Below, piece by piece: positions 31,891 to 32,576 of a DNA stretch of 57,107 bases. Within the stretch, counting starts at the first letter, position 1; every line of letters begins with the position of its first letter. This DNA comes from a virus: UHGV virus genome UHGV-1334481, one strand, 5' to 3'. The translations under genes were made by a program, and so were the position numbers. The notes below the pieces were generated by a model. It saw only the letters and a program-made list of their open reading frames with translations, was not told where the DNA came from and searched no databases.

Positions 31891-32120
31891 TGTCTGAACA
31901 AACTATTGAACAAAAACTGTCTGCTGAAATCGTAACTCTGAAGTCTCGTATTCTTGATACGCAGGACCAAGCGGCTCGTCTGATGGAAGAATCCAAAATT
32001 CTGCAAGGAACTTTGGCTGAAATTGCTTATGCAGTAGGTATCACTAGCGATACTATCAAAGTTGAAGAAATCGTTGAAGCCGTCAAGAATCTTACTGCTG
32101 AATCTGCTGATGAAGAATAA
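31890..32120 (+). CDS. 57A: tail fiber assembly chaperone gp57A
   Basis: 76-aa ORF MSEQTIEQKLSAEIVTLKSRILDTQDQ...; matches T4 gp57A. Confidence 0.85.
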   Translation: MSEQTIEQKLSAEIVTLKSRILDTQDQAARLMEESKILQGTLAEIAYAVGITSDTIKVEEIVEAVKNLTAESADEE

Positions 32121-32576
32121 TGGAATTTAAAGACTTTTCAACGGGTCTTTATGTAGCAGCTAAGTTTTCAGAATTAACACTTGATGCGCTGGAAGTTCTT
32201 CCAGCGCTCTTTACGTGTTCCTAATCCAGTTCCTAGAGAAAAAATTCATTCGACCATATGTTATTCAAGAGTAAATGTTCCGTATGTTCCATCAAGCGGA
32301 AGTTTTGAAGTAGCTTCTTCTGGACATTTAGAAGTATGGAAAACACAAGATGGATCGACTCTTGTACTTGTGCTAGATTCTGAATATCTGCGCTGTCGAC
32401 ACATGTATGCGCGGGCACTAGGTGCTACACATGATTTTGATGATTACACACCGCATATAACATTGTCTTATAATGTTGGGCCCTTATCATTTAGCGGTGA
32501 TGTACAAATTCCGGTCGTATTAGATCGTGAATACAAAGAGCCTCTTAAACTCGATTGGGCAGATGATTTAAAATAA
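32120..32576 (+). CDS. 57B: 57B / Acb1-like 2H phosphodiesterase (anti-CBASS), N-terminal region out of frame
   Basis: ATG 32120 (TAATG coupling to 57A) opens a 34-codon frame; main 131-codon frame (two H-x-T motifs, IHSTI and PHITL) starts at TTG 32181 with no RBS. Confidence 0.7.

Follow-up and report, generated by a model that had tools for sequence, protein, structure and literature searches.

Acb1 of phage T4 (the product of gene 57B; PF23474) is a 2H phosphoesterase that cleaves the cyclic di- and trinucleotides of CBASS, and the Acb1 of the Erwinia phage FBB1 has been crystallised (PDB 7t26 and 7t27). The two HxT motifs form the catalytic tetrad of Acb1, and Tyr12 of the FBB1 enzyme stacks on a nucleobase of the bound cyclic dinucleotide (PMC9117128). 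T4 with a deletion of acb1 grows normally on hosts without CBASS, whereas its growth is impaired more than 300-fold on a host with an Acb1-sensitive CBASS system (PMC9117128). In addition, 57B is non-essential on K-12 (HIDEN-SEQ preprint, bioRxiv 10.1101/2025.11.20.689424).

The acb1 gene described here lies in the window, that is, the whole 57,107-nt stretch of viral DNA that was analysed (UHGV virus genome UHGV-1334481). It shares with T4 Acb1 the locus after 57A, the TAATG coupling, and both HxT motifs. It is unlike T4 Acb1 in that its reading frame breaks after codon 27: positions 1-19 of the Pfam profile and the equivalent of Tyr12 are cut off from the catalytic part. Judged from its sequence as written, this acb1 is a pseudogene or null allele, and not a variant enzyme.

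The second system for comparison is mutagenesis at quasipalindromes. Mutations associated with quasipalindromes were reportedly described by Ripley in 1982 for T4 rIIB and yeast CYC1. Template-switch mutations of this type are also known from thyA and lacZ reporters of E. coli. The idea of template switching was first proposed from Ripley's frameshift analysis of T4 rIIB (PMC7202029). Homogenisation of the arms and inversion of the spacer by template switching have been documented, including 2-nt spacers of the AA/TT type, and intermolecular switching at short inverted repeats yields spacer inversion (PMC8604942). The change in acb1 resembles the known cases in that an imperfect repeat became perfect by a multinucleotide change that is the reverse complement of the other arm. 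It resembles yeast SPO75 in the flip of a 2-nt spacer from AA to TT, and yeast REG2 in the correction of an arm together with spacer inversion (PMC8604942). It differs from the known cases in two respects: one base is added within the coding sequence, which destroys the gene, whereas a few residues are changed in those cases; and the event is read from a single consensus sequence. The Acb1 family, its function, and the template-switch mechanism are already known; the allele and the occurrence of three states at one site are new.

The acb1 locus and its reading frames

The window is a Tequatrovirus (T4-like) segment, and its best overall relatives are the Escherichia phages UGKSEcP2 and UGKSEcP1, at approximately 98-99% identity. 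The position of acb1 downstream of 57A is the conserved T-even arrangement, as seen from synteny with the relatives. The stop codon TAA of 57A overlaps the ATG of acb1 at 32120 (TAATG). The features are listed in Table 1.

Table 1. Features of the 57A/acb1 locus, and the acb2 gene of the window
Feature	Coordinates	Strand	Basis or description
Gene 57A, tail-fibre assembly chaperone, intact	31890..32120	+	Pfam GP57 PF17594, 164 bits, profile 1-75/75
acb1/57B 5' fragment	32120..32224	+	Codons 1-25 native, then 9 altered or out-of-frame codons and TAA
acb1 3' fragment	32184..32576	+	130 codons from ATG 32184; Acb1-homologous from ~32202 on
Lesion in acb1	32196..32202	+	Alignment; AA->TT at 32196-32197 (spacer inversion), extra C in CC 32201-32202 (arm completion)
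Perfect 22-nt palindrome GCGCTGGAAG-TT-CTTCCAGCGC	32186..32207	.	10-bp arms; replaces the ancestral 21-nt quasipalindrome GCGCTGGAAGAACTTCAGCGC
acb2 (vs.4-like), cyclic-nucleotide sponge, apparently intact	44515..44781	+	Pfam Acb2_Tad1_hairpin PF24729, 71.8 bits, profile 1-58/58

The first-pass annotation had described a start codon ATG at 32120, coupled to 57A by TAATG, which opens a frame of 34 codons, and a main frame of 131 codons with two HxT motifs from TTG 32181. The ORF and frame check bore out both frames, and all coordinates given there for the 57A/acb1 locus hold. The ORF from ATG 32120 ends at the stop codon TAA 32222-32224. The 3' ORF, which has 131 codons if counted from TTG 32181, ends at 32576 and is in a different frame from the 5' ORF. 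The downstream frame is open from 32178, past the TAA at 32175-32177, and the two frames overlap as far as 32221 (44 nt). The HxT motifs of the 3' ORF are IHST (32243-32254) and PHITL (32451-32465); in the numbering of the 151-aa relatives, their residues are H43/T45 and H112/T114. Tyr11, the equivalent of the base-stacking Tyr12 of FBB1, sits in the 34-codon 5' fragment.

The gene after 57A had been named as 57B, encoding Acb1 of the 2H phosphoesterase family, and the profile and structure matches agree with this. The 3' ORF scored 177 bits against the Pfam Acb1 profile PF23474 (cut-off 27), with residues 6-128 aligned on profile positions 20-144 of 144, and it matched Acb1 of PDB 7t26 with E=4.7e-51. 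These strong matches dispose of the alternative, raised in the same annotation, that similarity to Acb1 or 2H enzymes might be lacking. The other alternative raised there, a native start near 32181-32184, also fails: the Pfam Acb1 profile and the FBB1 Acb1 begin approximately 19 positions upstream.

It had further been proposed that an indel of 1 or 2 nt within 32178-32221 had put the N-terminal region out of frame, and that one ORF of about 151-152 codons would be restored without it. The N-terminal 26 codons are indeed out of frame with the remainder, and the cause is a 1-nt indel inside this interval. In UGKSEcP1, RB32, and BW-1, 57B is one gene of 151 codons, and the window regains 151 codons on removal of one base. 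The locus is covered by 571 of the 602 matching phage records, and in the aligned relatives 57B is single and uninterrupted. Given these intact relatives, a chance ORF pattern is rejected on comparative grounds as the explanation of the split frame. The alignments go beyond the first account in three points: the exact lesion (AA->TT plus one C), its apparently palindrome-templated form, and another frameshift, certainly deleterious, which lies in the portal gene 20.

The lesion and its distribution

Across 31890-32650 (761 nt), the lesion accounts for the sole differences (three) from UGKSEcP1 and UGKSEcP2; 57B is otherwise identical to that of these two phages. The net effect is a +1-nt frameshift, by which the frame changes after codon 27. 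The inverted repeat of the common allele is imperfect: it has outer arms GCGCTG/CAGCGC (6 bp), inner arms AAG/CTT (3 bp), a bulged G, and the spacer AA. In the window allele, GCGCTGGAAGTTCTTCCAGCGC, the arms are perfect over 10 bp, up from 6 bp. Reverse-complementing the left arm and the spacer gives exactly the right half of this palindrome. In terms of the common allele, nt 1-10 of the 22-mer are unchanged, and the other 12 nt are the reverse complement of nt 1-12 of that allele. Such a form is taken by one of 11,080 distinct variants of the 21-mer that combine an adjacent double substitution with a 1-nt insertion. The predicted hairpin of the single-stranded DNA has an energy of -11.0 kcal/mol in the window allele, versus -6.8 kcal/mol in the common allele (z=-3.3 for the latter).

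The window and UGKSEcP2 differ in 90 mutation clusters, and when all of these were screened, a reverse-complement copy of nearby reference sequence explained two only: the cluster in acb1 (16 nt) and that in a hairpin of gene 12 (26 nt). Matches that were reverse-only or complement-only, which served as controls, reached 8 nt at maximum. The gene-12 hairpin (short tail fibre, - strand; 16483-16506) has perfect 10-bp arms, AATTCGATCC-TACT-GGATCGAATT. Its 4-nt spacer is inverted relative to that of UGKSEcP2 (AGTA), and the orientation in the window is common to at least 14 records. On this comparison, the gene-12 hairpin is regarded as a segregating spacer-inversion polymorphism within a coding region, and as a second signature of template switching.

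The alleles were surveyed by blastn with a 76-nt query in 50,697 phage records, of which 771 matched. The window allele was present in none of these 771 records, and neither were intermediate alleles with TT only or with the added C only. The common allele was found in all but one, that of phage vB_EcoM_FT, and FT alone exceeds 96.1% identity to the query. Exact-pattern scans of metagenome and genome contigs gave no match to the perfect-arm allele. Scans of viral contigs were uninformative for the window and FT alleles, since the common allele also gave no match there. No recorded protein was identical to the 34-, 130-, or 131-aa product in exact-match look-ups.

In FT (MT682710.1), positions 1527-1547, which are homologous to 32186-32207 of the window, match the common 21-mer exactly when reverse-complemented. 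The same quasipalindrome has undergone the same kind of event as in the window, but the length and the frame are kept in FT: EEL is replaced with KFF in a protein of 151 aa that scores 199.5 bits against the Pfam profile. Relative to the window, FT carries differences at 32255, at 7 more sites downstream in 57B, and at many upstream sites. Since FT is on this different SNP background and the window matches UGKSEcP1/2 on both flanks, the FT and window alleles are read as independent events at one quasipalindrome, neither being derived from the other. As recorded in public genomes, one 21-nt quasipalindrome of acb1 exists in three states: common, fully inverted, and half-inverted. The Acb1 of FT may be functionally altered.

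It might be supposed that the quasipalindrome at acb1 codons 23-30 is a recurrent template-switch hotspot of the T-even phages, so that their populations always hold Acb1-minus variants. This is considered distinctly improbable: two independent hits on one 21-nt site in approximately 772 genomes are consistent with a hotspot and do not establish it. If it were true, altered (FT-type) and null alleles would occur at appreciable frequency, and they might be favoured where the guard systems of hosts sense depletion of cyclic nucleotides.

Origin of the window allele

With moderate confidence, the allele is considered to be a real null allele of acb1 that arose by one template-switch mutation at the quasipalindrome. 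The ancestor, like T4, RB32, and UGKSEcP1/2, would have held the imperfect inverted repeat in codons 23-30, with the left outer arm, the bulged G, AAG, AA, CTT, and the right outer arm in this order. During DNA synthesis, the nascent strand would have left its own template in the inner arm (AAG). It would then have used the same-sense strand of the sister duplex as its template, running back through the spacer and the left arm, before it rejoined its own template in the outer arm. The product of such a route would be GCGCTGGAAG+TTCTTCCAGCGC, in which the left arm is joined to a reverse-complement copy of left arm and spacer. A single switch would thus lead to all three changes: the inversion of the spacer from AA to TT, and the C added opposite the formerly bulged G. 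In the FT case, the two switches would both have taken place in the outer arms, with the length and the frame preserved. The hallmarks of template switching that were looked for were all found, namely an imperfect repeat, a templated change, a spacer inversion, and the absence of intermediates in the relatives.

A possible, if rather doubtful, alternative is that acb1 of the phage is intact, and that the three-base change came from sequencing, amplification, cloning, assembly, or polishing. The true sequence at 32186-32207 would then be GAAGAACTTCAGC or another in-frame sequence. This alternative draws on the quality of the record, for which every indel between the window and UGKSEcP2 was listed. 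In the portal gene 20 (4350-5935, - strand), a 1-nt deletion at ~5658 changes GTAGATAATGC of the coding strand to GTAGA-AATGC, and splits an essential protein of 524 aa into ORFs of 112 and 412 codons. This deletion is present in none of the 946 matching phage records and is probably a sequence error. Since a viable phage cannot carry a frameshift in gene 20, at least one error is probable in the record, and this raises the prior of an error at acb1. A palindrome origin of the gene-20 deletion was also considered and is unconvincing: arms of only 4 bp result. In addition, the poly-A at 33211 is A7 in the window versus A6 in all full-length matches, and is unique to the window. At 33205-33282 (ORF 32974-33282, + strand), the extra A removes the stop codon of a 77-aa internal-virion-protein-like gene; the extended ORF gains approximately 25 codons and runs into the next gene. 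This A7 may be a homopolymer error.

The acb1 allele is itself a singleton in the survey of phage records. Furthermore, polymerases are able to switch templates at hairpins in vitro, and a switch of this kind during amplification or cloning would look the same. However, only single nucleotides are gained or lost at the other suspect sites, whereas the change in acb1 is a coordinated three-base event with the form of an exact reverse-complement copy. A form taken by one of the 11,080 comparable variants, at one of only two such clusters in 90, is not what an error in homopolymer length combined with noise would give. With arms of 6-10 nt, much shorter than the k-mers of assemblers, the assembly graph should be unambiguous here. 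Moreover, the same site was changed independently in FT, and acb1 is dispensable.

Some indels of the window are not noise. In a gene at 36249-36722 (+ strand), A7->A8 at ~36519-36526 truncates a hypothetical protein of 157 aa at approximately residue 97. The A8 allele is common to phages ph0021 and PsgM02F, two independent records with an annotated CDS of 97 aa, and the frameshift at 36526 looks inherited and not erroneous. The notion that all window indels are sequencing noise is rejected in part, on account of this shared A8 and of the gene-12 orientation in at least 14 records. It should be mentioned that PsgM02F (OR584013.1) is labelled as a Pseudomonas coronafaciens phage, yet in this region its identity to E. 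coli Tequatroviruses is approximately 98%; the host label seems odd. If the acb1 change is an artefact, the record needs correction at acb1, and at gene 20 it certainly does.

A hybrid perfect palindrome would also result if a common-type and an FT-type allele had undergone recombination, or short-patch gene conversion, with the junction inside the 3-nt AAG. In its left half the window allele does match the common allele, and in its right half the FT allele, and T-even phages recombine at high frequency. This origin is nevertheless very unlikely: the FT-type allele is in one of the 771 records, and, with the window identical to UGKSEcP1/2 on both sides, the patch must span 32196-32202 and exclude both 32191 and 32255. 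A single half-inversion is also more likely than a full inversion of the FT type with an additional 1-nt insertion error, since the latter would require a rare event and, no more than 5 nt away, an independent error.

Consequences for Acb1 and anti-CBASS capacity

Owing to the extra base, ribosomes coming from 57A via the TAATG coupling would stop after 34 codons. The duplex energies with the Shine-Dalgarno (SD) partner were +0.2 and -0.7 kcal/mol for the internal ATG and TTG, respectively, and -1.0 kcal/mol for the native start of acb1, versus a median of -5.9 kcal/mol among 54 genuine gene starts. A ribosome-binding site is missing from the 3' ORF, as the first-pass annotation had also stated. 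Since the native start at 32120 has almost no SD sequence, expression of acb1 in T-even phages probably depends on translational coupling to 57A.

The 3' ORF is without positions 1-19 of the Pfam profile, whereas the intact relatives span positions 1-144. A continuous polypeptide with the full domain, including the stacking tyrosine, is absent in acb1 of the window. The lost residues 8-26 are identical to those of FBB1 Acb1 at 17 of 19 positions, and the remainder is 63% identical. Because the 3' ORF has neither an SD sequence nor the N-terminal segment carrying the nucleobase-stacking tyrosine, no active Acb1 should be made from the sequence as written.

It is extremely unlikely that acb1 is still expressed, either by +1 frameshifting in 32178-32221, which would give a full-length protein with E26V, or as an active truncated product of 130 aa. 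Frameshifting would be helped by the 44 nt over which both frames are open. A candidate site can be read at CUU-C (32198-32201), where a weak purine-rich GGAAG precedes CUU in loose likeness to the prfB site. However, the two-frame layout is found in none of the 771 records and the relatives are single-frame, so that a conserved slippery site with a stimulator is not seen; the A site at CUU has no slow or stop codon, and there is no strong SD stimulator. As to the truncated product, the 19 missing profile positions are highly conserved, the internal ATG and TTG are without an SD sequence as described above, and the next in-frame ATG is past the first HxT motif.

If the allele is a real null, the predicted phenotype is that Acb1 cleaves no cyclic oligonucleotides, and that the phage is sensitive to CBASS systems against which it would depend on Acb1. 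By analogy with T4, the loss of acb1 should have no cost on CBASS-free laboratory hosts. The phage would be a natural Acb1-null T-even phage, which should be sensitive to the CBASS systems that T4 evades via Acb1. It would be relevant to the choice of phages for therapy and for screens of defence systems, in which it could serve as an existing control strain. It would also illustrate cleanly, in a natural T-even phage, the quasipalindrome template-switch mutagenesis that was first inferred from T4 rII. Whether the allele is real or not, it has no new implications for the biology of Acb1 or CBASS, and its interpretation is clouded by the quality of the record.

The second anti-CBASS gene of the window, acb2, sits approximately 12 kb downstream of the broken acb1. 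Its start at 44515 was placed from the homologous CDS of 267 nt in UGKSEcP2. The intact acb2 may partly buffer the loss of acb1, and retain some anti-CBASS capacity. Natural alterations of acb2, namely a binding-site mutation in T2 and a premature stop in PaMx41, have been discussed in terms of evasion of Panoptes (PMC12657218). A loss of acb1 would be similar to that of acb2 in that an anti-defence gene is inactivated naturally in some isolates. The deletion of acb1 from T4 had no effect on Panoptes defence (PMC12657218), so that nothing indicates selection for the loss of acb1.

Two minor observations concern 57B in public records. The EEL->KFF replacement of FT falls in a conserved segment that is identical between T4-like and FBB1 Acb1. 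In addition, many RefSeq or Pharokka-style annotations label the product of 57B as "RNA ligase", others label it as "hypothetical protein", and only a few records call it anti-CBASS Acb1 or a cyclic nucleotide phosphodiesterase.
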